Below, one piece after another: positions 3,433-19,004 of a stretch of DNA of 27,711 nt. The DNA comes from a virus: UHGV virus genome UHGV-0119636. One strand, written 5' to 3'. The number at the start of each line of letters is the position of its first letter. Positions within the stretch are counted from its first letter, which is position 1. Under the pieces are notes generated by a model that was given only the letters and a program-made list of their open reading frames with translations, did not search any database and had not been told where the DNA came from. Position numbers and translations under genes: made by a program.

Positions 3433-3561
3433 TTATTTAGTTGCTGTTGTAGTTTTTAAAATATGCGAATTCCCCTCAATAGGATGAGTAAGAATCATAA
3501 GTCCACTGACAAAACAAATCCCAGCAATAGTGGCAAACGTAATTGATAACTTTTCTTTCAC
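3433..3561 (-). CDS. Possible small membrane protein, 42 aa, GTG start
   Basis: Found by hand, below the ORF-track size cut-off; weak SD AAAGGA; hydrophobic core FATIAGICFVSGLMIL. Confidence 0.3.
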   Translation of the reverse strand: MKEKLSITFATIAGICFVSGLMILTHPIEGNSHILKTTTATK

Positions 3562-3809
3562 GTTAAGTCAGTCCTTTCATTCTTTTCGAACGGATTTGGT
3601 TGCAACGCTAAAACAAAGTAGTCATCGACGATTTTAGCACCTTTTACTTTGCCGATTTCAATCATTGCTTTAACTGTTGCAGTTCCACAATTCCATCTCA
3701 CAGCTGCTTTTTCTGCTGAGATAAATAACGGCGTAAGATTCTGACTGAATAACTCTTTGTCTTCCAAACCGTTCTCCAAAATATAAATGATTAACTCTCT
3801 ACCGGTCAT
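3558..3809 (-). CDS. Hypothetical protein, 83 aa
   Basis: ORF track; start overlaps the stop of the upstream small ORF (ATGA). Confidence 0.5.
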   Translation of the reverse strand: MTGRELIIYILENGLEDKELFSQNLTPLFISAEKAAVRWNCGTATVKAMIEIGKVKGAKIVDDYFVLALQPNPFEKNERTDLT

Positions 3810-4064: not shown

Positions 4065-5003
4065 TCAAATCATGTTGAGAATATCCCCATCCACATTGAA
4101 ATCAAGAAGAATAGTTCTCTCATAACCGTTCACGAAGTTACGATTTGCCTCGTTGTAAGTGTTATAGATTCCGAAATCTACGAAATTATCACCTACTGGA
4201 TGTTTCTCGTCATAAATCCATCCAACAATCTGACCTGCCTGTGTACGCGGGATTCCGAGCATATCATATACTTCATTCAGGAACAGATGACCTTTCGTTT
4301 TCAACATGTCATTTGCATAACGCTGCTGATCTTTAAGGAACATTAGATTGAATTCAGGATCTTTAGTCCATCCTGTACATCCATCATCGAAGAATTTAGC
4401 ATAATCGCTGTAACTGTCGAGAGTTGCTACATTTGCTGTTTTCTTAACAGTAGTTTCTGTACCATCTTCATTTACAACAGTCTCTTCGATTTCTTTTGCT
4501 TTGATGTTGTACTTCAGTTCTTTATCAAGCTCTTCACCAAATCTCTCAATAACACGACCACGATATTCCTTGAAGCCTTTGTCAATAGTTGCATAAGCGG
4601 CTGCAAGTGCTAAGTTACGTTTACGAAGAATATGATGACCACTAAGAATAGCAGCGATAGAAACTGTTCCAAGGATTACTGCTGGAGCATAAAGTTTTGC
4701 TACCTTTACGGCTGTTTGAGTATACATGATAGTTAAATCTTTCTTACCATCTTCTTCTGTGTACTCTTTACCTTCTGGAACCATATCTGGATTTTCCATA
4801 AATTCATGAATTTTCTCGATTTTTTCTTTTGGCTCAGCGAGCACCTCATCGAGTTTAGTAGTTGCTTTACATGCCATTACAGCAGAGCCAACTACACCAA
4901 CAATACCTGCGCCAACCAAGATTTCAGGGCTATGCTTTTTAAATTTAAAACCTACACGATGGAGGCTTCTAGTTACTGTGTTCATAATTTCTAATTTTGC
5001 CAT
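4065..5003 (-). CDS. Two-helix membrane protein, paralog family member A, 312 aa
   Basis: SD AAAAGGAGAG; N-terminal SPEILVGAGIVGVVGSAVMACKAT, second hydrophobic helix, RNLALAAAYA motif and conserved C-terminal domain shared with the genes at 7078-7905 and 9366-10133. Confidence 0.7.
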   Translation of the reverse strand: MAKLEIMNTVTRSLHRVGFKFKKHSPEILVGAGIVGVVGSAVMACKATTKLDEVLAEPKEKIEKIHEFMENPDMVPEGKEYTEEDGKKDLTIMYTQTAVKVAKLYAPAVILGTVSIAAILSGHHILRKRNLALAAAYATIDKGFKEYRGRVIERFGEELDKELKYNIKAKEIEETVVNEDGTETTVKKTANVATLDSYSDYAKFFDDGCTGWTKDPEFNLMFLKDQQRYANDMLKTKGHLFLNEVYDMLGIPRTQAGQIVGWIYDEKHPVGDNFVDFGIYNTYNEANRNFVNGYERTILLDFNVDGDILNMI

Positions 5004-5462: not shown

Positions 5463-5771
5463 TCAAATATAATCTTTTACCTTCTTGCCAGTGTTATAAA
5501 TCTCTCGTTCGATTCCTAGACCAAAAGGTAATCTAACACTCTCTAATTCAGACAGCATTACATAACCCCATTCCCATTCAAAAAGATGACAATAACCGTA
5601 TAATAACCAGTCACCGTCATCTTGTTTTTCACCTTCTGTAATTAACCAGGTACCTGTTCCAGTTGGATTAAAATACTTAACTACTACATCAGCTTCTTCC
5701 ATCTTTCCTTCCTGAGAACCAATCGGATAATTTTCAAAAGTTTTCTCCAATTCATCGGTCATTAGTAGCAT
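5463..5771 (-). CDS. DUF2958-like protein, 102 aa
   Basis: VKYFNPTGTGTWLITE...DGDWLLYGYCHL..EWGYVMLSELESV pattern recalled as DUF2958 (from memory). Confidence 0.55.
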   Translation of the reverse strand: MLLMTDELEKTFENYPIGSQEGKMEEADVVVKYFNPTGTGTWLITEGEKQDDGDWLLYGYCHLFEWEWGYVMLSELESVRLPFGLGIEREIYNTGKKVKDYI

Positions 5772-7047: not shown

Positions 7048-7074
7048 CATAAAGCACTGTGTATTTTTCGCGTA
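7048..7074 (-). promoter_or_regulatory. Conserved promoter/operator-like element, copy p
   Basis: Plus strand cataaagcactgtgtatttttcgcgta; member of the 17-copy family; about 40 nt upstream of the start at 7008. Confidence 0.5.
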
Positions 7075-7077
7075 TGA

Positions 7078-7905
7078 TTAATAGTAGCTATCGAAACCAT
7101 ATTCCGGAGGCATCAGATGATCAATAACAATACACGGTTCATTATCTTCCGTAATTTGAGCACTATATCTCACATCGATTTTGCCTTTATCGATTCTCCA
7201 ACCGATGCTATTACCAACTTCGGTATGCTTAAGACCAATTTCGTCATAGAAATCATTCAGAGAAATATACATCTCGTTACCGTTGATCATTCTCTCATTA
7301 AGAGTAAGAACAGCATTTTTAATCTTGTCGATATCCGATCTGAAATATCTGTCGGAATGACTGTCATAACACAACGTGTTACCTTTACCTGTCATGATAA
7401 TCTGAGTGTCTGCAACCGGATGTTCTTCAACTTGCTTCTTAGCGACTTTATCTCTGATGTTATTTTCCTTCTTCTCTCCGATAGTCTCTACCACTTTCTC
7501 TCTGTAGTCAGACAGTGCTGTTGTAGATAACTGATATGCTGTTGCCAATGCTGCGTTACGTCTTACATGTACGGAATTAGCACCGATAAGACAAGCGACT
7601 GACGCAATGCCAGTGATAGCTGCTGGAATATAAGGTTTCCAAGCTGCTTTTACTGTTTCGACAGGTGTGAGATTTAAAGCGTTTCTTTCGTCTTCTTCTG
7701 TGAAAATACCGCCTTCATGAGCTTCTTTCTCTTTAAACTTCTTCTCTTCCTCGATTAACTCCATAGCTTTTGGTGTTGCTTTTACTGCAAGCACAACAGT
7801 AGATATCATACCTGCGATACCAATGCCAGTAAGAATTTCCGGACTGCGTTTTTTCATTACATATTTTGCAGTGTTTAAAAATTTTGTTACATTTGGTTTG
7901 TTCAT
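7078..7905 (-). CDS. Two-helix membrane protein, paralog family member C, 275 aa
   Basis: SD GAAAGGAGA; SPEILTGIGIAGMISTVVLAVKATPKAMELIEEE N-terminus almost identical to the 9366-10133 gene; conserved C-terminal domain. Confidence 0.7.
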   Translation of the reverse strand: MNKPNVTKFLNTAKYVMKKRSPEILTGIGIAGMISTVVLAVKATPKAMELIEEEKKFKEKEAHEGGIFTEEDERNALNLTPVETVKAAWKPYIPAAITGIASVACLIGANSVHVRRNAALATAYQLSTTALSDYREKVVETIGEKKENNIRDKVAKKQVEEHPVADTQIIMTGKGNTLCYDSHSDRYFRSDIDKIKNAVLTLNERMINGNEMYISLNDFYDEIGLKHTEVGNSIGWRIDKGKIDVRYSAQITEDNEPCIVIDHLMPPEYGFDSYY

Positions 7906-7994
7906 TTTTTATCTCCTTTCATGAACAGTTAAATTGTTTTTACCAAAAATCCCACTCGGGAAAATTTTGATCTTGAAAAAATAGAAATCGAAAA

Positions 7995-8066
7995 GAAACA
8001 GTGTAGGACTCGAACCCACAACCTACAGATATAAGTCTGTTGCTCTACCAATTGAGCTAACTGTTT
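7995..8066 (-). tRNA. tRNA gene, anticodon probably UAU (Ile), with an unusual anticodon arm
   Basis: Hand fold: acceptor AAACAGT/ACTGTTT, D-arm GCTC-AATTGGTA-GAGC, T-arm GTGGG-TTCGAGT-CCTAC, 72 nt, no encoded CCA. The anticodon arm ACAGA-CUUAUA-UCUGU is 16 nt, one short of canonical. Starts 5 nt after the -10-like end of motif q. Confidence 0.65.
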
Positions 8067-8070
8067 CTTC

Positions 8071-8100
8071 TCATAATAGCGCTTGTAAATTTCGCGAATA
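8071..8100 (-). promoter_or_regulatory. Conserved promoter/operator-like element, copy q (drives the tRNA)
   Basis: Plus strand tcataatagcgcttgtaaatttcgcgaata. Confidence 0.55.
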
Positions 8101-8142
8101 TAGATCTTCAGAAACAAAAAAGAAGAACCCCGAAGGATTCTC

Positions 8143-8313
8143 CTAGACTTTCTTCTGAAGCTCAGAAACTGCTTTCTTCAACTCTTCAAACTCCTTTTCT
8201 TTTTTCTGATCTGATAATGCACCTGCTATAGCCATAATACCTGTTACTACAACACCTGCATATTTTCCGACAGACTTCAGAAGCGGATTATTGATAATAC
8301 CTTTGAATTTCAT
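8143..8313 (-). CDS. Small membrane protein, 56 aa
   Basis: Found by hand; SD GAAAGGAGA; hydrophobic YAGVVVTGIMAIAGAL; motif o lies upstream. Confidence 0.45.
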   Translation of the reverse strand: MKFKGIINNPLLKSVGKYAGVVVTGIMAIAGALSDQKKEKEFEELKKAVSELQKKV

Positions 8314-8336
8314 TTTTCTCGTCTCCTTTCTTCATT

Positions 8337-8366
8337 CCATTAAAGGAAATGTTTTTGTCGCGATAC
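8337..8366 (-). promoter_or_regulatory. Conserved promoter/operator-like element, copy o
   Basis: Plus strand ccattaaaggaaatgtttttgtcgcgatac. Confidence 0.5.
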
Positions 8367-8400
8367 CGGTTTCGCTATATCAAAATATCATCGTTTATCG

Positions 8401-8856
8401 TCACCCGTGTATGGGTAAATCCATTTTGATTTTGTCAGGATTCATAATGAGGATACTATCGCAGTCCCAGCCATACAGATCCCAATATAACTGATGATCA
8501 GCTGATAAATTTAACTCGATGGCATCATAGCCAAGTTCAATGCATTTCTCGAAATCTATCAGTGTACTTATTGATTTCCATACCGGGTCAGCAATTGTTG
8601 GAAGTTCCTTTAATTTTTCTACGGAATCTATAACGAATATATTGGCTTCCGGAAGAGTGAATATGAAACTATTTTCTTCAATACATTCACGAAAATTTTC
8701 TCTTTCACACCAGTCTTTCCAACCTAATTTGGCATCTATCGGACTAGCCCAAAGACCTCCTCTAGGTTTAACCCAGCATTGCTCATTTTGAATAGGTTTA
8801 AATAAGTTTGGATTAAAAGTTGCATGTCCGTAATGAATATAAATCTTGTCTTGCAT
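8401..8856 (-). CDS. Hypothetical protein, 151 aa
   Basis: ORF track extends to 8889, but the SD AAAGGA precedes the internal ATG at 8856 (MQDKIY...). Confidence 0.55.
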   Translation of the reverse strand: MQDKIYIHYGHATFNPNLFKPIQNEQCWVKPRGGLWASPIDAKLGWKDWCERENFRECIEENSFIFTLPEANIFVIDSVEKLKELPTIADPVWKSISTLIDFEKCIELGYDAIELNLSADHQLYWDLYGWDCDSILIMNPDKIKMDLPIHG

Positions 8857-8914
8857 ATTACTATCCTTTCGTTCAAAAACATATGTCACTTAGTAACAAA
8901 AAGAAAAGAGGCCC

Positions 8915-9118
8915 CTATTTCAGGACCTCAAATTTCTCTTTTTTATTTTTCTTGATTTTATTCTCAACGGATTCTTTCCATTGATTCGCTTTAGTTGCCA
9001 CTGCCTGTCTGACTTCTGGAATAGCAAGTGCCGAACCGACAACCGTTACTGCCGGCACAACAATCTGTCCAATCCAAAGTCTTACTTCTCTCATAGCATC
9101 AATATTTTTGCGTTTCAT
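8915..9118 (-). CDS. Small membrane protein, 67 aa
   Basis: SD AAAGGAGGA; hydrophobic IGQIVVPAVTVVGSALAI; a hairpin overlaps the stop. Confidence 0.5.
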   Translation of the reverse strand: MKRKNIDAMREVRLWIGQIVVPAVTVVGSALAIPEVRQAVATKANQWKESVENKIKKNKKEKFEVLK

Positions 9119-9150
9119 AGTTTTATCCTCCTTTAAAAATATAATCTTTT

Positions 9151-9177
9151 CATTAAAGGCGTTGTTTATTTAGCGAG
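9151..9177 (-). promoter_or_regulatory. Conserved promoter/operator-like element, copy n
   Basis: Plus strand cattaaaggcgttgtttatttagcgag. Confidence 0.5.
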
Positions 9178-9352
9178 TGTAATGGATATGCTCATTGTTT
9201 AATTCGTCGAGATGTTTAATAAAATCTAAATATCTTTTATTTCGTCTATTCTCCACAAAGTTTATAACTAACCAAGCAATCCCTACGATAGGCAAGCCAA
9301 CGAATACTAATAGAAATAGTAAGCATGTAATCATAGAAACAAGCGTATTCAT
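9170..9352 (-). CDS. Small membrane protein, 60 aa
   Basis: Internal ATG at 9352 has strong SD GAAAGGAGA; hydrophobic ITCLLFLLVFVGLPIVGIAWLVI; coupled to the upstream paralog gene. Confidence 0.5.
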   Translation of the reverse strand: MNTLVSMITCLLFLLVFVGLPIVGIAWLVINFVENRRNKRYLDFIKHLDELNNEHIHYTR

Positions 9353-9365
9353 AAATCTTCTCCTT

Positions 9366-10133
9366 TCAATACTCTTCGTAATCAATGAACGGCTCTGTGA
9401 AATCTACAATATAACATTCAATACCGTCGTCCATTTCTACTTTTGTATGGTGGAAATATAGCCAACCATCCCAGTACATTTCATACATCTGAGCTGCGGA
9501 CCAACCCATAAATTCACCGTAATCCTGTCGATCAATCTCTAGTAAATCGTAATAATCGTTTAAAGATGCACCACCGGATTGAGATAGCATTTTATTAATC
9601 TCATACTCTGCTCTCAATTGAGTTTCTTTCGTCACACGGTAATAACGTTTGGAATATTCATCGTAGAATAGTGTTTTGCCATCCTCGTATTCGTCGTCAT
9701 ATTCTTCTTTGTCTTCTTCCTCGTAATGGTCTTTTGCTACAGCAGCACGAATGAGTTTGTCTCCGTCTTCACCATATAACTTTTTAACTTTGTTTTTGTA
9801 CTCTTTGTGAGTTTGGTCTAGTAAGGCATAAGCAGATGCGATGGCTGCTTGGGAATGTTTGTTTAATAGATTCGCGCCAAATATGCAAGCTAGGGTTCCT
9901 GTTCCAATCAATAAGGAAGGAATATATGTTGGTCCTGCTACTCGAATAGTCTCCCATTTTGTTAATTCATCTCCTTTCTCTTCTTCAGCTAGTTCAATAA
10001 GTTCCATTGCTTTCGGAGTAGCTTTAACCGCCATTACAGCTGTACCTACCACTCCGGCAGCTCCTAATACTGTTAATATAGTAGAGCTGTTTTTCTTTAC
10101 GAATCTTTTCGAAACTGTTAGTAAGTCATTCAT
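9366..10133 (-). CDS. Two-helix membrane protein, paralog family member B, 255 aa
   Basis: ATG at 10133 with SD GGAG 10 nt upstream (ORF-track start at 10142 is GTG); N-terminus SSTILTVLGAAGVVGTAVMAVKATPKAMELIE; conserved C-terminal domain. Confidence 0.7.
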   Translation of the reverse strand: MNDLLTVSKRFVKKNSSTILTVLGAAGVVGTAVMAVKATPKAMELIELAEEEKGDELTKWETIRVAGPTYIPSLLIGTGTLACIFGANLLNKHSQAAIASAYALLDQTHKEYKNKVKKLYGEDGDKLIRAAVAKDHYEEEDKEEYDDEYEDGKTLFYDEYSKRYYRVTKETQLRAEYEINKMLSQSGGASLNDYYDLLEIDRQDYGEFMGWSAAQMYEMYWDGWLYFHHTKVEMDDGIECYIVDFTEPFIDYEEY

Positions 10134-10252
10134 TTCCAGCACGCTCCTTGGCGATAAATTTGGTAAAAATAAAAAGAGAAAGAAAAGAGTCAGCTTGTTG
10201 TGTAAACCAAGTCTAACTCAATTCTTTTTGTCATTATCCGAAATAACAATAT

Positions 10253-10284
10253 CCCATAACAGGTGATGTAATTTTCGCGAATCC
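10253..10284 (-). promoter_or_regulatory. Conserved promoter/operator-like element, copy c
   Basis: Plus strand cccataacaggtgatgtaattttcgcgaatcc. Confidence 0.5.
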
Positions 10285-10506
10285 CTACTGCTCAAAAAAT
10301 AAAACTACATCTACCGGATCTTTGAAGTGCTGCTCCTCCACTACTTCTTTAAATTCTTCAAATGATTCCGGTTCGTATTCTTGTAAATATAAAATCTGTT
10401 CAAGCAATCTTCCGTAAAATCCTTGAGAATTAGATAGCATTTTTACCACACCAATGACTTGTTCAACATCATAACCGTCTGCTTTCTTTTCCATAGCGTT
10501 TGCCAT
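10285..10506 (-). CDS. Small strongly acidic protein, 73 aa
   Basis: ATG at 10506 with SD AAAGGAG (track start 10515 is GTG); many Asp/Glu; no hydrophobic helix. Confidence 0.5.
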   Translation of the reverse strand: MANAMEKKADGYDVEQVIGVVKMLSNSQGFYGRLLEQILYLQEYEPESFEEFKEVVEEQHFKDPVDVVLFFEQ

Positions 10507-10682
10507 TTTGAACACTCCTTTAATTGGTTTTTGATAAAAATAAAAAGAGAATACAATGACTTCAGGGTCGGCCCAACGAAAACCGTTGCCCGGTGGGTAG
10601 CATGTTTTATTACGTTATTACGTGCCGCTACGCCTTCGTGTCTCACCACTGGATTTCCACCAGTATCTATCCATTGCTTTCT
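10507..10682 (-). other. Long GC-rich structured 5' leader between motif a and the acidic-protein gene
   Basis: About 175 nt without a convincing ORF; stem CAACG/CGTTG flanked by GGCC/CCCGG; possible 18-codon leader ORF with tandem Trp codons. Confidence 0.35.
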
Positions 10683-10714
10683 CTCATAATAGGTGATGTA
10701 ATTTTCGCGAATAG
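10683..10714 (-). promoter_or_regulatory. Conserved promoter/operator-like element, copy a
   Basis: Plus strand ctcataataggtgatgtaattttcgcgaatag. Confidence 0.5.
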
Positions 10715-10738
10715 AAAAAGAAAATGCCTAGTTTTTAA

Positions 10739-11002
10739 CTAGACAAATTCTTTAATAATTATTGTTCCACCAACTACATCGATTTTTATTTTATTCATCG
10801 CTTTCAACATACTAGCCACTTTTTGCACTGGTAACTTACTTGTGAAACCATAGAACACCAAGTCGCCCATGGTATATACATGCCCTACTGAATACTTAAC
10901 TTCAATATCGGCTGTATATTTGCCAAGGCAATCCATTGCTCCTAAATTTTTCACAACTTCGTTTTTATTCGCGCATAAAGTAATTTCATATTTAGTAAAC
11001 AT
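10739..11002 (-). CDS. Hypothetical protein, 87 aa
   Basis: SD AAGGAGG; motif b about 33 nt upstream. Confidence 0.55.
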   Translation of the reverse strand: MFTKYEITLCANKNEVVKNLGAMDCLGKYTADIEVKYSVGHVYTMGDLVFYGFTSKLPVQKVASMLKAMNKIKIDVVGGTIIIKEFV

Positions 11003-11034
11003 ATAAATTCCTCCTTATTCGATTTCATTGTTTT

Positions 11035-11067
11035 TCTCATAATAGGTGATGTAATTTTCGCGAAAAC
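11035..11067 (-). promoter_or_regulatory. Conserved promoter/operator-like element, copy b
   Basis: Plus strand tctcataataggtgatgtaattttcgcgaaaac; contains the 12-bp palindrome TTTTCGCGAAAA. Confidence 0.55.
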
Positions 11068-11085
11068 AAAAGAGAAAGGGCCCAT

Positions 11086-11223
11086 GTTACTGAGCCACTT
11101 TCGCTTTCTTATGATTTTTAACTGCTTTCTTAGAAACCTCTACTGCTTTATTCACTGCATCACTTGCCAAACTACCGACTACCAATCCGCCAGCAATCTC
11201 AATAATGTGTCTAACTAAAACAT
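11086..11223 (-). CDS. Small membrane protein, 45 aa
   Basis: Found by hand; SD AGGAGG; hydrophobic IIEIAGGLVVGSLA. Confidence 0.4.
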
Positions 11224-11258
11224 TCATTTTAGATTCCTCCTGTTAAGCAATTTATTAT

Positions 11259-11288
11259 CTTTCCATAATAGGACTTGTAATTTTCGCG
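11259..11288 (-). promoter_or_regulatory. Conserved promoter/operator-like element, copy d
   Basis: Plus strand ccataataggacttgtaattttcgcgaatt. Confidence 0.5.
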
Positions 11289-11320
11289 AATTAAAAGAAA
11301 AGACACCGTGTTTCAGGTGC

Positions 11321-11548
11321 CTAATCCTCTGAATCAACCATTTGTTCAATTTTCAGTAATACTTTCTGATCAATTTCTCCATCCGCATTGATATGAAATC
11401 GTATTTTACCATCCTTCATCTCAGCTTCTATCTCACTAATACGGATGTCTGGTTTGACTCCAATATTTTTGTATATAGCTCTAGATATAAGTTTGGCTAC
11501 CATACCTCTCATAAATCTAGTAGATAATTTAATTTTCATTTCGTCCAT
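11321..11548 (-). CDS. Hypothetical protein, 75 aa
   Basis: SD AGAAGGAGGAGG; motif e upstream. Confidence 0.55.
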   Translation of the reverse strand: MDEMKIKLSTRFMRGMVAKLISRAIYKNIGVKPDIRISEIEAEMKDGKIRFHINADGEIDQKVLLKIEQMVDSED

Positions 11549-11574
11549 AATTACCTCCTCCTTCTAGGTTGTTT

Positions 11575-11606
11575 CCTATAATAGGGGAAGTTTAAGTCGC
11601 GAAAAC
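11575..11606 (-). promoter_or_regulatory. Conserved promoter/operator-like element, copy e
   Basis: Plus strand cctataataggggaagtttaagtcgcgaaaac. Confidence 0.5.
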
Positions 11607-11634
11607 AAAAGAAAGAGCAGTGGGTGACACCGCT

Positions 11635-11742
11635 CTAACTGTTTCTCAAAAATCGAATGAGAATCCATACAAGCCATAATCCTCCGGTTGCAAATACTAA
11701 TACAAAGTCGATAAGCAATCCGAATAATCCACGCTTTTTCAT
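11635..11742 (-). CDS. Possible very small membrane peptide, 35 aa
   Basis: Found by hand; SD AAAGGAGAAG; hydrophobic GLFGLLIDFVLVFATGGLWLVWILI. Confidence 0.3.
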   Translation of the reverse strand: MKKRGLFGLLIDFVLVFATGGLWLVWILIRFLRNS

Positions 11743-11768
11743 GATTATCTTCTCCTTTCATTTTCTTT

Positions 11769-11797
11769 TCACAATAGGAGAAGTTTTTATCGCGTGC
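11769..11797 (-). promoter_or_regulatory. Conserved promoter/operator-like element, copy f
   Basis: Plus strand tcacaataggagaagtttttatcgcgtgc. Confidence 0.45.
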
Positions 11798-11845
11798 ATT
11801 ATCAGTTCCTTCAAATACAAAATAAAAGAGACCAATCGGCCTCTC

Positions 11846-11995
11846 TTACATGTTTCGTTTAGAAAGTTCTTCTGCTACCTTCTTTGCAATCTTTTCATCC
11901 AATAACTTATCTGTACTTTGTTTCCCTGCGAATGTTAATCCCGCACTAACAATAGCTGTTATAAGCTTTGCAATTCTAATTACTTTTGGTGACAT
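11846..11995 (-). CDS. Small protein, 49 aa
   Basis: Found by hand; SD AAAGGAGG; hydrophobic IAKLITAIVSAGLTFAG. Confidence 0.4.
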   Translation of the reverse strand: MSPKVIRIAKLITAIVSAGLTFAGKQSTDKLLDEKIAKKVAEELSKRNM

Positions 11996-12010
11996 AAATA
12001 TACCTCCTTT

Positions 12011-12038
12011 CTATAATAGAAGAGGTTTAAATCGCGCG
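12011..12038 (-). promoter_or_regulatory. Conserved promoter/operator-like element, copy g
   Basis: Plus strand ctataatagaagaggtttaaatcgcgcg. Confidence 0.45.
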
Positions 12039-12386
12039 TCTATCGAAGCAAGTTTCCCATCGTTCTCGCTTAACTGGCTTCATTTTCATAGTCCACATCA
12101 TTTGTCGGACCGTTACGGTGGGATATAAACCGTTCTCAGGTTCTCCCGATCTATCCTCGAAGAACTCCAGGAATCTTTCATGTAAATATAAAGTGTCTGT
12201 CAGCCACGGATCAATCTCGCCCCACCAGGTATTTTTCGTCGCTGGATCATATCGCTGCTGAATAACAGCTAGTCCTTTTCGTCCCATTTTGAATAAAGTA
12301 CATTTACTGTAAACTGGATGATCACATTCATAAGTTTCTCCGTACATCGATACATAAACTTTTGGCTTTTCGTAGTGATAACGCAT
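12027..12386 (-). CDS. Hypothetical protein, 119 aa
   Basis: SD GAAAGGA; a diverged motif-like element lies upstream (about 12411-12445). Confidence 0.6.
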   Translation of the reverse strand: MRYHYEKPKVYVSMYGETYECDHPVYSKCTLFKMGRKGLAVIQQRYDPATKNTWWGEIDPWLTDTLYLHERFLEFFEDRSGEPENGLYPTVTVRQMMWTMKMKPVKRERWETCFDRRAI

Positions 12387-12480
12387 ATTACTATTATCCT
12401 TTCTTTAACTTTAGTTATATAACTTTTGTTTAAACTCTCGCGTTAGGAAATATAAAAGAAGAAAAAAAAAGAAAAGACTA

Positions 12481-12560
12481 TGGGAATAGCGCGGGATTCG
12501 AACCCACGACGTTGAGTTTCCTCTTATTCTTCCATTAGAACTAACCGTCTTAACTATTCC
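12481..12560 (-). tRNA. tRNA-like gene with non-canonical body, possibly a Ser-type or degenerate tRNA
   Basis: Canonical T-arm GTGGG-TTCGAAT-CCCGC and 7-bp acceptor GGAATAG/CTATTCC, about 80 nt; no canonical D-arm or 17-nt anticodon arm found by hand; a GAGGAAACTC hairpin could be a variable arm. Confidence 0.45.
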
Positions 12561-12607
12561 AGAGACTTCTTCCGATATATTGCTATACGGGAATTGTTCT
12601 CTTCTTT

Positions 12608-12638
12608 TCTATAATAGGAAATGTTTATTTAGCGAAAG
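12608..12638 (-). promoter_or_regulatory. Conserved promoter/operator-like element, copy h (upstream of the tRNA-like gene)
   Basis: Plus strand tctataataggaaatgtttatttagcgaaag. Confidence 0.5.
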
Positions 12639-12679
12639 AAAATAGCCCAGGCGTTTAACCCGAGCTAATTCTCTTAAAC

Positions 12680-13048
12680 TTATTCGTTACCATTGAGTTT
12701 CTCAATAGCTTCAACCTTCCTGCTGTCAAACATCGTAGAATTTACAATACTCATCACAGCTTTGTAATATGTTTTCGGCTGATCCTTCTTGAGCAACTCT
12801 ATCGCCTGAACTTTACGACTATCAAACATGCTGCTGTTCATTATCGAAGCTACCGCACTGTCATAATCTGCTGTGCTAAATATATCCGCTAATAAATCAA
12901 CTTCATATGTGTCCTGTTTTCGTTTCTTTTCACGCAATACAACTGCCACAATTGGAATCGCAATACCAATCCCATTTGCTACATATTCTGTGATTTTCCA
13001 TAAACTCTCTTTTGTTTTCTCGCTAGTTAAAACTTCTTTGATTTTCAT
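12680..13048 (-). CDS. Membrane protein with two internal ~30-aa repeats, 122 aa
   Basis: SD AGGAGG; hydrophobic IGIAIPIVAVVL; repeats SIMNSSMFDSRKVQAIELLKKDQ and SIVNSTMFDSRKVEAIEKLNGNE. Confidence 0.6.
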   Translation of the reverse strand: MKIKEVLTSEKTKESLWKITEYVANGIGIAIPIVAVVLREKKRKQDTYEVDLLADIFSTADYDSAVASIMNSSMFDSRKVQAIELLKKDQPKTYYKAVMSIVNSTMFDSRKVEAIEKLNGNE

Positions 13049-13073
13049 ATCAATAACCTCCTATAAGTTTATT

Positions 13074-13106
13074 CTCATAACAGGCGTTGTAATAATAGCG
13101 AAAAAG
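13074..13106 (-). promoter_or_regulatory. Conserved promoter/operator-like element, copy i
   Basis: Plus strand ctcataacaggcgttgtaataatagcgaaaaag. Confidence 0.5.
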
Positions 13107-13148
13107 AAGAGCCTAAGTCATTTCGACTCAAGCCCTTCCATTTTGAAA

Positions 13149-13532
13149 TTACTTTTTTGGGAGTAACTTCTGAATGAATCCTCGACCCATTATTGTTGTG
13201 ATGGTTCCAGTCTCTTCGAATTTGATAGACTTGATTGTGCCCCAGATAGTAACCGCTGTCGGTATAACAATACCCGCTCCTGTTAAGCAATTCTTAACAA
13301 CTCGATCTTTTCGTTCATCTTTAAGCTGCTCTGCTCTTAATTCAGCATCAACATTTTGCTGATCCTTTTTAAGTTCTTGTTCAGCCTTAATTTTCTCAAG
13401 TTCGATTGCTCGATCACATAACTTTGTCAGGCCGTCTACCGTATTTTTGTACTTATCTGTACCTACTTCAAGTTTTCCTAACTCTTCGAATTCGTCCTGA
13501 ATCTCATCTTTTAATAATGTTTCAATACTCAT
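13149..13532 (-). CDS. Coiled-coil protein with C-terminal hydrophobic helix, 127 aa
   Basis: Track start 13562 is the ATG inside motif j; the real start is the ATG at 13532 after SD AAGGAGG. Confidence 0.55.
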   Translation of the reverse strand: MSIETLLKDEIQDEFEELGKLEVGTDKYKNTVDGLTKLCDRAIELEKIKAEQELKKDQQNVDAELRAEQLKDERKDRVVKNCLTGAGIVIPTAVTIWGTIKSIKFEETGTITTIMGRGFIQKLLPKK

Positions 13533-13556
13533 TTTGAACTCCTCCTTATATTCGTA

Positions 13557-13588
13557 TTTCATAATAGGGAATGTTATTTTTGCGACAG
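13557..13588 (-). promoter_or_regulatory. Conserved promoter/operator-like element, copy j
   Basis: Plus strand tttcataatagggaatgttatttttgcgacag. Confidence 0.5.
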
Positions 13589-13783
13589 ATCTACTCTAAG
13601 CATTACGTGTTTATCTTTTCGTAGCTTATATGCCTTACCACTATCTATTTCTAAAAATAAATACGGTGCTGAGTCTGGATCTGAGCTGTCTACTTTCAGT
13701 GTGCCGATTGGCTTTTTTACTAAGAGTGTCGTTGCCACAACTGCACCTATCAGCATACCTACTAATAAAAATAAAAGTTCCAC
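13574..13783 (-). CDS. Small membrane protein, 69 aa, GTG start
   Basis: SD AAAGGAGGAAG before the internal GTG at 13783 (track start 13849 has no SD); hydrophobic LLFLLVGMLIGAVVATTLLV. Confidence 0.45.
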   Translation of the reverse strand: MELLFLLVGMLIGAVVATTLLVKKPIGTLKVDSSDPDSAPYLFLEIDSGKAYKLRKDKHVMLRVDLSQK

Positions 13784-13943
13784 TACGCTACTTCCTCCTT
13801 TCTTCAATAGAATTGTTTTATCGAAAACTCCCTCCCGGGAAATTTTCACTTTAGAATTTTAATATTGTTTCCTGTCACCTATGTACGGAATATCTATTCT
13901 AGATTAGAGTTTGTTTTAATCTAGGTTAAAGAAAAAAGAGAGC

Positions 13944-14180
13944 CTAAGCCCTCTTATCTGTCATAAAACTTGGTAACTGAAGTTCTGGTTTATAAGTCAT
14001 TAACTCTGCTTCATATAGCCTCATGATAATAGCTATCTCATCTTCATGAATACTTTTTATCAACTTAAAGACTTTATCATAATCAACATCTGATTTATTC
14101 TTCATTTGACAAATATAATCCACGAGTCTGGTATACTTATCATCCGCAGTTCCTATCATTGCCGCAAATTTAACTTCCAT
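13944..14180 (-). CDS. Hypothetical protein, 78 aa
   Basis: SD AAGGAGGA; motif k upstream. Confidence 0.55.
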   Translation of the reverse strand: MEVKFAAMIGTADDKYTRLVDYICQMKNKSDVDYDKVFKLIKSIHEDEIAIIMRLYEAELMTYKPELQLPSFMTDKRA

Positions 14181-14213
14181 AATTTATCCTCCTTAAATTT
14201 AAAGTTTTATGTT

Positions 14214-14246
14214 TCTATAAAGTAGTATGTATTTTTGGCGAAAAAG
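14214..14246 (-). promoter_or_regulatory. Conserved promoter/operator-like element, copy k
   Basis: Plus strand tctataaagtagtatgtatttttggcgaaaaag. Confidence 0.45.
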
Positions 14247-14261
14247 AAAAGAAGAGACCGA

Positions 14262-14462
14262 TTAGGCCTCCTCTTTAAATAACTCAGGGTATTTCTCCAT
14301 CAGTTCTTTTCTGTCTCGTTCAATGTCTTTTTCTATATGCTCGATTTCTGCTTCCAATTTACCTGTGCTTTTACCTAAACGGTAACCCAGATAAGATCCT
14401 ACAGCATAAACCAATCCGGCATATAAACCAAAACCTAAACCAGCTTTTAAATTAGCTTTCAT
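14262..14462 (-). CDS. Small membrane protein with glycine-zipper helix, 66 aa
   Basis: SD AGGAG; GLGFGLYAGLVYAVGSYLGY; imperfect terminator hairpin overlaps the stop. Confidence 0.5.
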   Translation of the reverse strand: MKANLKAGLGFGLYAGLVYAVGSYLGYRLGKSTGKLEAEIEHIEKDIERDRKELMEKYPELFKEEA

Positions 14463-14486
14463 GATAGATCACTCCTATAATTTATT

Positions 14487-14516
14487 CTCATAATAGGCGT
14501 TGTTTTAGTCGCGATC
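14487..14516 (-). promoter_or_regulatory. Conserved promoter/operator-like element, copy l
   Basis: Plus strand ctcataataggcgttgttttagtcgcgatc. Confidence 0.5.
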
Positions 14517-14693
14517 ATCAAACGGTACTTCTATGTTTTCAATCTCGTCAGAAATAATCTCCCCGTCACCGATAAGTAGTTCTCTTTTGTTTATTTGATT
14601 AACGCTAGTTCGATATATACCCTCAGCTACTGCTAGTCCGATAAATGTACTTACTCCCCAAAGAATTCCTTTGATTAATTTATTAGTATCCAT
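14505..14693 (-). CDS. Small membrane protein, 62 aa
   Basis: Internal ATG at 14693 after AGAGGAAAA; hydrophobic GILWGVSTFIGLAVAEGI; its stop lies inside motif l. Confidence 0.45.
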   Translation of the reverse strand: MDTNKLIKGILWGVSTFIGLAVAEGIYRTSVNQINKRELLIGDGEIISDEIENIEVPFDDRD

Positions 14694-14773
14694 TTTGAAT
14701 TTTCCTCTCATGATATATTCTCTATTGGAAATCAAAAGGAAGAGTATCTGCATAGATACCCGCCTTTTTGTTT

Positions 14774-14989
14774 TTAATTATTGCTTGTGGTCCAACCCAT
14801 GTTGTTCTGTGTGAATGAGTTGTTAATGCCGTTGATAGTTCTTACTCTATCCTCGTACAATGAATTGTCGCTAATGATGCTAACTCCGAATTTCCATTTG
14901 AAGTCTGGAATTTCGTTAGCTGCTTTCATAGCTTCATCCCATTTCTCAAGGAAGACTTCTATCGCATATCCTCTCTCTACACTATCCAT
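14774..14989 (-). CDS. Hypothetical protein, 71 aa
   Basis: SD AGGAGGG; motif m upstream. Confidence 0.5.
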   Translation of the reverse strand: MDSVERGYAIEVFLEKWDEAMKAANEIPDFKWKFGVSIISDNSLYEDRVRTINGINNSFTQNNMGWTTSNN

Positions 14990-15016
14990 GTCGTTACCCT
15001 CCTTTATAATAATTTT

Positions 15017-15046
15017 CTATAAAGGAGCGTGTAATTTTCGCGAATA
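15017..15046 (-). promoter_or_regulatory. Conserved promoter/operator-like element, copy m
   Basis: Plus strand ctataaaggagcgtgtaattttcgcgaata. Confidence 0.5.
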
Positions 15047-15987: not shown

Positions 15988-16016
15988 TTGCATATATGCG
16001 ATTTTGTGTGTATCAT
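15988..16016 (+). promoter_or_regulatory. Putative sigma-A-type promoter for the repressor-like gene
   Basis: TTGCAT, 17-nt spacer ending TGTG, then TATCAT; overlaps the palindrome GCATATATGC. Confidence 0.45.
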
Positions 16017-16088
16017 ATGGATTGATAAGAGAAGAATAAGAAAGAGTCCTAAGACTCATCTTCGCGATAGTATAAAGGAGTTAACCGA

Positions 16089-16685
16089 ATGACAATAGGA
16101 CAAAAAATAAAAGAATTACGCAATCAACTTAATATGTCGGTGGATGATCTTGCTGTGAAACTGGGTAAGAACCGTGCGACTATCTACCGCTATGAACGAG
16201 GAGATATCGAGAACCTCCCTCTCGATGTACTAGAACCATTAGCAAATGCTCTTGAGACCACACCTGGTTATTTAATGGGATGGGAAGAAACTACGAAAAA
16301 GAAAGAGCCTTCAATTATCGATGAAGTTACCATGGGTGACGTTTTTAAAGCGTTACGTCTAGGAAGTAATTTATCGATAGAGGAATTTTCGCATGAGATT
16401 GGATTATCTGCCCAAGACATAAGCAATTATGAAGCAGGAAAGACTCCTATACCTGTAAATATAATTAATCTTGTTGCTGATTTCTTTGGCATATCAATAG
16501 CGGAAATAGTTAAGGCACACAAAAACAGCGAAAATAGAACGCCTTCTGGTTTCGAAATGAAAAAGGAACGATTTGAACGTTTTAAAGTTTGGAATAAAGA
16601 GTTTGGACGAATACATTTTACTGATGAAGAAATCAATAAAATAATGGAATATACAAGGTTCTTACTTAGCCAAAGAAGACAGTAA
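16089..16685 (+). CDS. Tandem-HTH XRE-family repressor-like regulator, 198 aa
   Basis: SD AAAGGAG; two XRE-type helix-turn-helix units (residues about 1-65 and 80-140); no peptidase S24-like C-terminus seen. Confidence 0.75.
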   Translation: MTIGQKIKELRNQLNMSVDDLAVKLGKNRATIYRYERGDIENLPLDVLEPLANALETTPGYLMGWEETTKKKEPSIIDEVTMGDVFKALRLGSNLSIEEFSHEIGLSAQDISNYEAGKTPIPVNIINLVADFFGISIAEIVKAHKNSENRTPSGFEMKKERFERFKVWNKEFGRIHFTDEEINKIMEYTRFLLSQRRQ

Positions 16686-16770
16686 GTCTACATAGGTTTA
16701 CTCTATTTAAAGGAGGTGATGCCTGAATTCAGTTCATCGTAGAATTTACATCAAAGGAAAGGTGGAACCA

Positions 16771-18348
16771 ATGACAACGTTTGATATGAACAACGCTGTA
16801 GACAATGCGTTCGGTATGGACGTATATGCTATCTATCTTCGGAAAAGTCGAGCCGATGTAGAAGCAGAAAAACTTGGAGAAGGAGAAACACTAGCAAGGC
16901 ATAGAAAGATACTAACAGAACTTGCTGCTAGAAAAGGATTGTATATCGGTAAGATTTACGAGGAAATTGTATCTGGTGAAACAATCGAAGCTAGACCTGA
17001 AATACAAAAACTGATAGAAGATTGTTATAAAGGGAAATATAGAGGAATCCTAATAGTAGAAGTTACTCGTCTATCTCGTGGTAATCAAGGAGACGCTCAA
17101 AAAATACTCGACTGTCTCAAATATTCGAATAGAAACAATGGTGTATTAGTTATCACTCCTACTAAGACTTATGACGTTGCACACAGCCAAGAAGACGAAG
17201 AATATATGGAGTTTGAATTGTTTATGTCTCGTCGAGAATATAAGATGATTCAAAAGCGTATGGATCGTGGCCGTAAACAAGCAGTCGTAGAAGGAAACTT
17301 CATGGGTAGTTACCGTCCCTATGGATATGACATCTTAAAAACCAAGACCGGACGAACACTTATACCGAATGAAGATGAAGCTCCTATCGTGAAAATGATT
17401 TACGAATGGACAGTTAACGATAATTTATCTCCTTTCAAGATAGCTGAGCGTTTAACTAATATGGGTGTTCCTACTTATTATGGTGAGAAGGATTGGTCTA
17501 AAGAAACAGTTAAAACCATTTTGACGAATCAGACATACATGGGTAAAGTTCGTTGGAATGATCGAATGACTGTTAAGACTATGGTCGACGGAGAACTTAA
17601 AGCTACACGACCTCGTTCAAATCATTCCGATCACTTCATGCTATATGATGGAAAACATATGAAACACGCACTCGTCGACGAAGAAACATTCAAAGCAGCC
17701 TCCTCTCGCTTTCATAACGATAGGACAAGATCAAATCTAAAACTTGTTAATCCTCTTGCAGGACTTCTATTTTGTAAGAAATGTGGTAAATCTATGGGTT
17801 ATCAATCATATAGACATAAGAAAAACGGACCAATGGATCGATACAATCATAGACAGTCTGCTAATGGATGCAAGGTTAAGTCAGCAGTTGCTGAGGATGT
17901 TATAAAAGCTGTTATACATGCTTTGAAACTTTATATAGAAGATTTCGAATTTAAGTTAGACAACACTCCAGATGTTGACGAAAATTCAATCAATACGCAG
18001 CTCGAAGCTTTACAAAAAGAAATACGAAAATCCGAACGAAAACTTGCTAAGCTATTCGATTCTTGGGAAGATGAGAAGATAACAGATAATGAATTTGTTC
18101 AAAGGAAAGCCGTCCATAATCAGAAGATAGAAAATATAAAGAGGCAAATGGAAGAACTCGAATATTCGATACCAGAAAGAGAAGAATATGAGGATAAAAT
18201 AATATTGCTGTCTGAAGCACTTGTCGCTATCACAGACGAATCGCTTGACGCAGATATTAAGAACGAGTATCTTAAAAGAATCATTGATAGAATAGAGTTT
18301 AGTAGAGAGAATAACTCAGAGTTTATACTAGATATAGACTTATGCTAA
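16771..18348 (+). CDS. Large serine recombinase (integrase-type), about 525 aa
   Basis: ATG at 16771 after AAAGGAAAGG (track start 16762 is GTG); N-terminal YAIYLRKSR catalytic-serine region, Cys-rich zinc-ribbon CKKCGK...C, C-terminal coiled coil. Confidence 0.8.
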   Translation: MTTFDMNNAVDNAFGMDVYAIYLRKSRADVEAEKLGEGETLARHRKILTELAARKGLYIGKIYEEIVSGETIEARPEIQKLIEDCYKGKYRGILIVEVTRLSRGNQGDAQKILDCLKYSNRNNGVLVITPTKTYDVAHSQEDEEYMEFELFMSRREYKMIQKRMDRGRKQAVVEGNFMGSYRPYGYDILKTKTGRTLIPNEDEAPIVKMIYEWTVNDNLSPFKIAERLTNMGVPTYYGEKDWSKETVKTILTNQTYMGKVRWNDRMTVKTMVDGELKATRPRSNHSDHFMLYDGKHMKHALVDEETFKAASSRFHNDRTRSNLKLVNPLAGLLFCKKCGKSMGYQSYRHKKNGPMDRYNHRQSANGCKVKSAVAEDVIKAVIHALKLYIEDFEFKLDNTPDVDENSINTQLEALQKEIRKSERKLAKLFDSWEDEKITDNEFVQRKAVHNQKIENIKRQMEELEYSIPEREEYEDKIILLSEALVAITDESLDADIKNEYLKRIIDRIEFSRENNSEFILDIDLC

Positions 18349-18408
18349 ATGGTGGCTTTGCTGCCTGTAAGACCTGCACTAAAATGGTGTAGGTAACTTT
18401 TTCCCCGA

Positions 18409-18458
18409 CATATATATCATGGTTGTGTTTCTTTTATATCGCCACCATGATATATATC
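18409..18458. repeat. Inverted repeat CATATATATCATGG / CCATGATATATATG, 22-bp spacer; candidate attP or operator
   Basis: 13 of 14 bp match; sits just after the recombinase stop and before the small paralog genes; a second inverted pair TGGTGGC/GCCACCA flanks it. Confidence 0.3.
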
Positions 18459-18504
18459 ACAGGGAAACTATTCTAAACGTTGATATATCAAGGAGGAGAT
18501 ATAC

Positions 18505-18756
18505 ATGAGAATAGTATGGAAAGACAGTGCGCCTAAAACAAAACCTTGGTTGACGTTCAAATATAGAGAACATATCGTTAGCCAATATGGAGATGGATGG
18601 ATTACCGATATACCTGGTGATAACAATATCTATTTTCCGAGAGAGTGTGCTTATAATGCAATCGATAAGTCTCTAGGTGGAAAGACACGAAAAGCTAATC
18701 CTCAAAGACATAAATTAGGAATAAAAGTTATTGGTAGAAAGGACGATGTATCATGA
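18505..18756 (+). CDS. Small protein, MRIVWKDS family, copy 1, 83 aa
   Basis: Strong SD AAGGAGGAG; stop overlaps the start of copy 2 (ATGA). Confidence 0.6.
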   Translation: MRIVWKDSAPKTKPWLTFKYREHIVSQYGDGWITDIPGDNNIYFPRECAYNAIDKSLGGKTRKANPQRHKLGIKVIGRKDDVS

Positions 18757-19004
18757 GAATCGTATGGAAAGATAGTCATAAGCCAAAAGAATATGAACCT
18801 ATGAAATATCGAAATATTTACATCTTCGGTACTCCTGAAGGATGGGAAGTAAATATAAAAGGAGATAATAATCTATACAAGACTCATTACTGTGCTATGA
18901 ATGCGATTGATGATTACTTTGGAGATTTTGGAGAACGTGGTACAGAAAAACGTAAACGATATGGAATACAAATAATAGGTAAGAAAAATGATGAGACTGC
19001 ATGA
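18753..19004 (+). CDS. Small protein, MRIVWKDS family, copy 2, 83 aa
   Basis: Shares MRIVWKDS, GW, GDNN-Y, CA-NAID and GI-IG-K-D motifs with copy 1. Confidence 0.6.
   Translation: MRIVWKDSHKPKEYEPMKYRNIYIFGTPEGWEVNIKGDNNLYKTHYCAMNAIDDYFGDFGERGTEKRKRYGIQIIGKKNDETA

Follow-up and report, generated by a model that had tools for sequence, protein, structure and literature searches.

tRNA-like ends of the mascRNA/MALAT1 type are folds derived from tRNAs and have no working anticodon. Plant mitochondrial t-elements, which adjoin mRNAs, are tRNA-derived folds without a working anticodon as well (PMC1920247, PMC11658184); RNase P and RNase Z cleave them, and they receive a CCA tail and base modifications but no amino acid (PMC11658184). 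tRNA-like modules are also found in tmRNA and in the Y-RNA-like YrlA RNAs of bacteria and phages (PMC4201824), and phage tRNAs with substitutions in the anticodon loop evade host anticodon nucleases (PMC10264068). Here we describe a tRNA-shaped gene in a phage genome that, judging from comparative sequence evidence, very probably encodes a non-decoding tRNA-like RNA. The family to which it belongs is probably a kind of non-decoding tRNA-like RNA carried by gut Lachnospiraceae phages. These anticodon-less tRNA mimics matched no described family in the searches that we ran; a catalogue of about 10,000 candidate structured RNAs of phages, which gives no function to any such tRNA-like element, may already include them (PMC10690425). 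A literature search on 6-nt anticodon loops returned nothing usable.

The RNA shares with phage elongator tRNAs, such as a tRNA-Ile(UAU) found in one of the collected loci (L255), the cloverleaf, conserved tertiary bases, a variable loop of 5 nt, a T loop of canonical form and an Rfam tRNA score well beyond the threshold. It differs from them in that the loop at the anticodon position ranges from 1 to 38 nt in the family (6 nt here) with no conserved anticodon, in that C73 pairs with G-1, and in that the gene stands behind a dedicated promoter and not in a tRNA array. The extra G-1 paired with C73, which makes an 8-bp acceptor helix, recalls the acceptor end of tRNA-His; however, there is no GUG anticodon here, and derived members have covaried to U:A at -1:73. 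Like the modules of tmRNA and YrlA, the phage RNA mimics acceptor, T arm and elbow and has no decoding anticodon loop, but it forms a complete four-arm cloverleaf and carries neither an mRNA-like nor a Ro-binding module. The nuclease-evading phage tRNAs reportedly remain decoding, with a 7-nt loop. They resemble the present RNA in having an anticodon loop that departs from that of the host, and possibly in a tie to tRNA conflicts, whereas in the tRNA-like family the size of the loop is itself unconstrained. By analogy, the phage RNA would work most like the plant mitochondrial t-elements and the mascRNA type, since it is a tRNA-like fold without a functional anticodon, placed between a promoter and the coding sequence of a DUF6353 gene. 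Those RNAs occur in organellar or nuclear transcripts, whereas ours occurs in a bacteriophage and at the extreme 5' end, behind a promoter; moreover, the phage RNA is stand-alone in some relatives (L001, L223 and L245) and its core is more strictly conserved.

The window, by which we mean the whole stretch of 27,711 nucleotides that was analysed (UHGV-0119636), belongs to a temperate tailed phage with holin and tail-fibre genes. Gene content places a repressor-like gene at 16089-16685 and a large serine recombinase/integrase gene at 16762-18348, both on the plus strand. GC and AT skew change sign exactly over this plus-strand lysogeny module (16000-19000), consistent with a switch in gene orientation. 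The nearest GenBank record is MT835485.1, an unannotated phage from human faeces that is about 70-73% identical at the DNA level over limited parts of the query. Two Lachnospiraceae genomes from the mouse gut contain prophages with the same promoter and tRNA-like gene, an indication that the host belongs to the Lachnospiraceae (Firmicutes).

The tRNA-like gene lies on the minus strand, from 8066 to 7995, and matches the Rfam tRNA model RF00005 with 62 bits (E 2e-11) against a gathering threshold of 29; when the window was searched at gathering thresholds, tRNA was the only Rfam family found. It encodes an RNA of 72 nt without a CCA, on which Rfam, ARAGORN, the fold, covariation and a covariance model of the family (96.3 bits) all converge. 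The canonical acceptor, D and T arms noticed in the sequence-only reading are borne out by this score and by the minimum-energy fold, which is the cloverleaf. It consists of an acceptor stem AAACAGU/ACUGUUU (8066-8060 / 8002-7996), a D arm GCUC-AAUUGGUA-GAGC (8057-8042), a 16-nt anticodon-arm hairpin ACAGA-CUUAUA-UCUGU (8040-8025), a 5-nt variable loop AGGUU (8024-8020) and a T arm GUGGG-UUCGAGU-CCUAC (8019-8003) with a canonical T loop. The discriminator C73 (7995) pairs with G-1 (8067), the last base of a purine-rich leader AGAA + G-1 (8067..8071), so that the acceptor helix extends to 8 bp. C73 is followed directly by a U-rich trailer UUUUCGAUUUCUAUUUUUU (7976..7994); every family member examined has such a pyrimidine-rich, mostly U tract right after C73, without CCA. 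The T arm and the U-rich tail were also recognised by the terminator scan as a weak intrinsic terminator (site 8020-8002).

The unusual part of the cloverleaf is the anticodon arm. The 16-nt arm with a 5-bp stem (8040-8036 / 8029-8025) and a 6-nt loop CUUAUA (8035-8030), folded by hand in the sequence-only reading, is the one on which fold, Rfam and ARAGORN agree: the Rfam alignment deletes a single position of the anticodon loop, and ARAGORN reports a 'tRNA-???' at 7994-8067 with a 2-nt anticodon 'ta'. The alternative then offered, a 4-bp stem with an 8-nt loop, is disfavoured because the closing pair 31:39 covaries across homologues, and a quadruplet anticodon is rejected for the same reason. 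An 8-nt loop was seen elsewhere, in a tRNA with a 4-base anticodon (acaa) predicted by ARAGORN in a viral contig that was a chance match (L012, 11229-11303).

Homologous loci were fetched mostly through the neighbouring DUF6353 protein and scanned with ARAGORN, so that the association with DUF6353 in this sample is biased. A covariance model built from 13 sequences was then used against all collected loci, and 41 distinct hits were pooled, about 36 of which are motif-associated family members from temperate Lachnospiraceae phages and prophages. In a MAFFT alignment of 13 homologues with a hand-drawn, hand-checked cloverleaf, 96% of the cells are paired and 15 of the 22 pairs show changes on both sides; all five pairs of the anticodon stem covary. 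None of 500 shuffles reached any of the observed pairing measures, and controls in which the partner column was slid were only 28-51% paired. The pooled alignment of 41 sequences, which was fitted to the model and leans towards it, has both-sided changes in 21/22 pairs. Over the two alignments 93-96% of the cells are paired, and covariation is found in all four helices (acceptor, D, anticodon and T). Among the 13 sequences there is little or no variation at U8, A14, G18/G19, A21, G53-U54-U55-C56, A58 and C61, and the 15:48 pair, in alignment rows read by eye, alternates between A:U and G:C. The -1:73 pair is G:C in 31 of the 41 pooled sequences and U:A in derived members. As comparative evidence, the alignments show selection on the four helices and on the elbow and core bases, and not on the anticodon loop.

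Loop lengths in the family are 1, 2, 3, 4, 5, 6, 7, 9 and 10 nt, in addition to inserts of 21-38 nt, with modes at 6 nt (13 sequences) and 4 nt (10 sequences). Loop sequences are equally diverse: CUUAAG, CUUAGG, UAUU, UUUC, UAU, GAAA, GUGUAG, UGAAAU, CAUUUAAAAA and others were found besides the large inserts, and ARAGORN gave further odd anticodons on the loci fetched through DUF6353, namely (at), (aa), (tt), (gt), (ttaa) and (gaaa). Since the loop varies in both length and sequence, the family has no conserved anticodon; an L-shape and an anticodon stem that are kept around a free loop fit neither a decoder nor a decaying pseudogene. Among the closer relatives, L023, whose neighbouring protein is 62% identical, has the same anticodon arm and differs in the variable loop and T stem, while the arm reads ACAGA-CUUAAG-UCUGU in L030/L031 and CUAGA-CUUAGG-UUUAG in L236. 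A Lachnospiraceae prophage (L153) with the arm CCACA-UAUU-UGUGG still scores 44.9 bits with the Rfam tRNA model. The comparison thus shows a widespread, selected family of tRNA-shaped RNAs in phages of the human and mouse gut, in which everything is kept except the anticodon.

Some order is nevertheless seen among the loops. In the sub-lineage of the window, three variants keep a 6-nt CUUA-NN loop (CUUAUA, CUUAAG and CUUAGG), and GAAA, GUGUAG, UGAAAU and UUCG-type loops recur on different stems. Several sub-families carry one loop on different, covarying stems (GUGUAG, UGAAAU and GAAA: L233, L160 and L161; L251 and L250; L210 and L223). Shared loops within sub-families suggest that some local loop constraint may exist. 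A single family member, L024, has a 7-nt loop with U33 and a purine at 37 (UUUGUAA, with A37, reading Thr-UGU), carried by a mismatched, non-standard stem of 6 bp; decoding could thus persist in some members, or have been lost only recently. Among the covariance-model hits, a clean loop of this kind on a standard 5-bp stem was seen only in genuine tRNAs (Asn-GUU and Ile-UAU) of L255. These are members of an unrelated tRNA array, without the motif and with A or G as base 73, and so act as a positive control. The phage with this array (IMGVR_UViG_3300031998_001170) also has a 93-nt gene at 3515-3607, called tRNA-Pyl with anticodon CUA by ARAGORN and possibly a suppressor of amber codons; at 5527-5682, L255 further contains a piece of the tRNA-like element that is split or duplicated. 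An IMG/VR search with the anticodon arm alone gave mostly chance matches, of which only the L008/L023 orthologue was informative, and among the matches listed from a metagenome scan with a 17-base D-arm pattern almost all were due to chance and none was a new variant.

The gene is preceded by a promoter motif TCGCGAAATTTACAAGCGCTATTATG (8072..8097, minus strand), called motif q in the sequence-only reading. This motif occurs 15 times in the window for 0.4 copies expected, always on the minus strand and between 7048 and 15042; its form across the 15 copies is (T)CGCGAnnnTnACAnnnnnTATTATG. Every copy has a terminator or a T run before it and a gene after it, and terminator-like sites on the minus strand number 18 for 4.6 expected. 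The minus-strand block 7048-15042 is an array of single-gene units, a long succession of small genes in which every gene has a motif promoter and a terminator to itself. At the present locus, the intrinsic terminator of the upstream 56-aa gene (GGAGAATCCTTCGGGGTTCTTCT followed by a T run, 8121..8144, minus strand, from the terminator scan) insulates the cassette, and the tRNA-like RNA must therefore use its own promoter. The motif lies directly upstream of nearly all family members, including 16 of the 17 found with a DNA pattern that was blind to both the motif and DUF6353.

The distance between motif and gene is short. The 5' end of the tRNA had been placed about 5 nt past the motif, and the interval is exactly 5 nt (AGAAG): the motif ends at 8072, the G of TATTATG, and tRNA position 1 is 8066. 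Across 31 homologous loci, the TATTAT-like hexamer is separated from the first paired base, G-1, by 2 nt (13 loci), 3 nt (9), 4 nt (3), 5 nt (3, including the window) or 6 nt (3). In every one of these loci the two strands of the acceptor stem are complementary, and in L223 and L026 the helix reaches almost to the motif. With acceptor pairing beginning 2-6 nt past the motif, the start of transcription must lie at about the first G after TATTAT, as deduced from spacing alone. The earlier expectation that the transcript would need little 5' processing agrees with this position of the gene directly behind the motif. TATTAT is unlikely to be a normal sigma-70 -10 box because only 2-6 nt separate it from the first paired base and because sigma-70-type sites were not in excess in a generic promoter scan; we take the promoter type to be more like that of a phage polymerase. 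A phage-specific polymerase or sigma factor is suspected, and none was found within the window. The purine-rich GAGAA that follows the motif is also present at protein-coding genes and overlaps the 5' acceptor strand at the tRNA-like gene. The locus thus offers a handle on an uncharacterised type of phage promoter, with transcription apparently starting right at the end of a conserved motif.

Comparison of the loci shows, at the level of genome sequence, that promoter, tRNA-like RNA and U tract form one movable cassette. In L238-L240, whose DUF6353 proteins are 71-73% identical, promoter and tRNA-like RNA are absent as a single indel of roughly 150 nt (a size estimated by reading the sequences), and the remaining downstream leader is kept. 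In MT835485.1 (L001) the cassette precedes a different small gene. A second promoter motif is found 3' of the tRNA-like RNA in L001, L223 and L245, which makes the cassette a stand-alone unit there. In the window, the next gene encodes a DUF6353 protein (7078..7905, minus strand; Pfam PF19880, E 4e-89), predicted to be a two-helix membrane protein, and the stretch from the tRNA-like RNA to its start codon contains no promoter motif. In the sample fetched mostly through DUF6353 itself, most homologous loci have a DUF6353 gene downstream of the tRNA-like RNA, usually 22-46 nt away; in the DNA-pattern scan that is independent of DUF6353, this holds for only 9 of 17 loci. An obligatory link with DUF6353 is weakened by this lower fraction and by the stand-alone units.

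DUF6353 itself is a very large family, with at least 8000 clusters in the protein database, and the window holds three paralogues (DUF6353 / phrog_2152), at 7078-7905, 9366-10142 and 4065-5003, all on the minus strand. An AlphaFold model with mean pLDDT 68 had no significant match among PDB folds, and literature searches on DUF6353 found nothing. Between the tRNA-like RNA and the start of the DUF6353 gene, we noticed a small conserved element UUUUCCCGAGUGGGAUUUUUGGUAAAAAC (7941-7965, minus strand), which is kept with stem-preserving changes in L238-L240, where the tRNA-like cassette is absent. It might be either a host-type promoter of the extended -10 kind or a weak hairpin that runs into a stretch of U. 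The leader of the paralogue 9366-10142 (10143-10256, minus strand) has a very stable fold (z = -4.2); between promoter motif and start codon it presents a terminator-like hairpin and then a long U tract, and it may be an attenuator.

What, then, is the RNA for? The sequence-only reading had proposed UAU as the likely anticodon, and a functional tRNA-Ile(UAU), or another decoder, whose 6-nt loop reads AUA and supplements a rare host tRNA would account for the high tRNA score of the locus. The loop CUUAUA is indeed the CUUAUAA of the L255 phage tRNA-Ile(UAU) minus one A, and AUA is common, making up 29% of the Ile codons in the ORFs of the window, as the earlier reading supposed; codon usage, however, cannot rescue a loop that is not conserved. 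The nearest variants alter the would-be anticodon (UAU, UAA, UAG), the wider family sets loops of 1-10 nt, tetraloops or inserts on the same conserved body, and the sole 7-nt loop with U33 and a purine at 37 sits on the irregular stem of L024. Furthermore, tRNA-Ile identity involves an A73 discriminator as well as an anticodon read by IleRS; A73 is present in the L255 tRNA-Ile(UAU), whereas C73 at 7995 is paired with G-1. We consider decoding of this kind very improbable, and it is the comparative data that speak against it: ARAGORN and Rfam gave neither a canonical 7-nt loop in another register nor a pseudogene call. A frameshift-suppressor or other altered-loop decoder tRNA was rejected as well, the loop size not being fixed across orthologues. 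Just as improbable is a decaying tRNA pseudogene, or an assembly error of one base, even though ARAGORN assigns no amino acid and the loop is one base short of canonical. Compensatory changes affect every helix across over 30 lineages, the gene having a dedicated promoter in each, and the degraded copy at 12483-12560 illustrates what decay or divergence looks like. The 6-nt loop is no sequencing error, as the identical sequence recurs in the separately assembled L234 and L235, L023 has the identical anticodon arm, and relatives carry other 6-nt variants. Nor is the gene a phage attP tRNA fragment, which would be a partial 3' piece of a tRNA beside the integrase or at the prophage end: it has a full-length fold and its own promoter, and lies about 8.7 kb from the serine integrase gene.

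Two further readings take the conserved body of the RNA as their starting point. G-1:C73 is the main identity element of bacterial HisRS and works on minihelices. With G-1 in 32/41 and C73 in 34/41 pooled sequences, the RNA might be an acceptor mimic of the tRNA-His type, charged by HisRS without an anticodon and used outside the ribosome or for titration of HisRS. Against such a mimic, derived members have U-1:A73 and several others A-1/C73, so that pairing, or the start sequence of the promoter, may be what is selected and not His identity; the GAGAA shared with protein-coding genes argues in the same direction, and we regard a His-type role as improbable. Somewhat better placed, though still rather unlikely in our view, is a role mainly in cis, as a tRNA-shaped 5' leader that would determine the 5' end of the DUF6353 mRNA, its stability or its read-through by the proposed RNase P/RNase Z cleavage or by a terminal helix, in the manner of t-elements. 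The uninterrupted path from the RNA to DUF6353 in the window, the start codon within 22-46 nt in most loci, which leaves no room for a separate promoter, the resemblance of T arm plus U tract to a weak terminator, and the structured leader with a terminator-like hairpin at the DUF6353 paralogue 9366-10142 are all in its favour. It is harder to reconcile with units that have a fresh promoter behind them, with the unbiased sample, where DUF6353 is downstream of barely half the copies, and with conservation of the D arm and core tertiary bases beyond what RNase P and RNase Z are known to need. We favour a free RNA over a purely cis role because of these stand-alone units and because close relatives retain the conserved leader of the DUF6353 orthologue without the cassette.

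The explanation that we find likely as a whole is that of a non-decoding tRNA-like RNA family of Lachnospiraceae phages, released by host tRNA processing as a free mimic. Transcription would begin at about the first G after TATTAT, and the 5' end would almost at once be locked in the 8-bp acceptor helix, the transcript folding as a tRNA L-shape. Every step after folding we infer from sequence. A CCA-less 3' end followed by a U-rich trailer is the configuration of Firmicutes RNase Z substrates. Because C73 is CCA-less and precedes just such a trailer, host RNase Z may cut there, after which the CCA-adding enzyme would act; RNase P would trim the few leader bases if needed. The product would be a stable RNA of about 75 nt with the acceptor end and elbow of a tRNA and no capacity to read codons, and the same cleavage would set the 5' end of the DUF6353 mRNA wherever the two are co-transcribed.

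The selected product would be the free mimic, which could be a decoy, competitor or dedicated carrier and would act through factors that read the acceptor end or elbow and not the anticodon. Since conservation falls on the acceptor end and elbow, candidate partners are those that recognise tRNAs at these sites. That such a mimic acts in trans is a serious possibility, if one we would stop short of calling probable. A more specific version seems to us rather doubtful: the dedicated phage promoter would yield an abundant anticodon-less mimic with a His-type (G-1:C73) 8-bp acceptor, acting in trans as a decoy or sponge, or as a carrier. A decoy would soak up those host factors or immune effectors to which the acceptor end or elbow marks a tRNA, for example enzymes that modify or cleave 3' ends, while a carrier would be dedicated to an amino acid and invisible to the ribosome. 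Much of the conflict between phages and bacterial immunity is now recognised to be fought over tRNAs. An RNA that looks like a tRNA to processing, and possibly defence, enzymes and is useless to the ribosome is an obvious candidate for a decoy or regulator; either the decoy or the carrier, if real, would represent a new class of phage counter-measure RNA. For annotation, the labels that gene callers would give to this locus, 'tRNA-Ile/undetermined' or 'pseudo-tRNA', are both misleading.

A second, more derived tRNA-like element is found in the window at 12483..12560 (minus strand), with a covariance-model match at 12478-12551 (32.9 bits, E 7e-6). Its fold has an intact T arm, an 8-bp acceptor and an extra helix, and a GAAA-type loop replaces the anticodon loop. 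The motif copy at 12610-12634 precedes it by 50-60 nt, and ORF 12027-12386 (phrog_17256) follows it. Another altered copy was noticed in Lachnospiraceae genome MGBC000092 (CAJTDN010000002.1; L152, 608-689), where the copy of promoter plus tRNA-like gene is apparently broken by an insertion within or after the anticodon arm; the next gene presumably encodes an IS3-type transposase.
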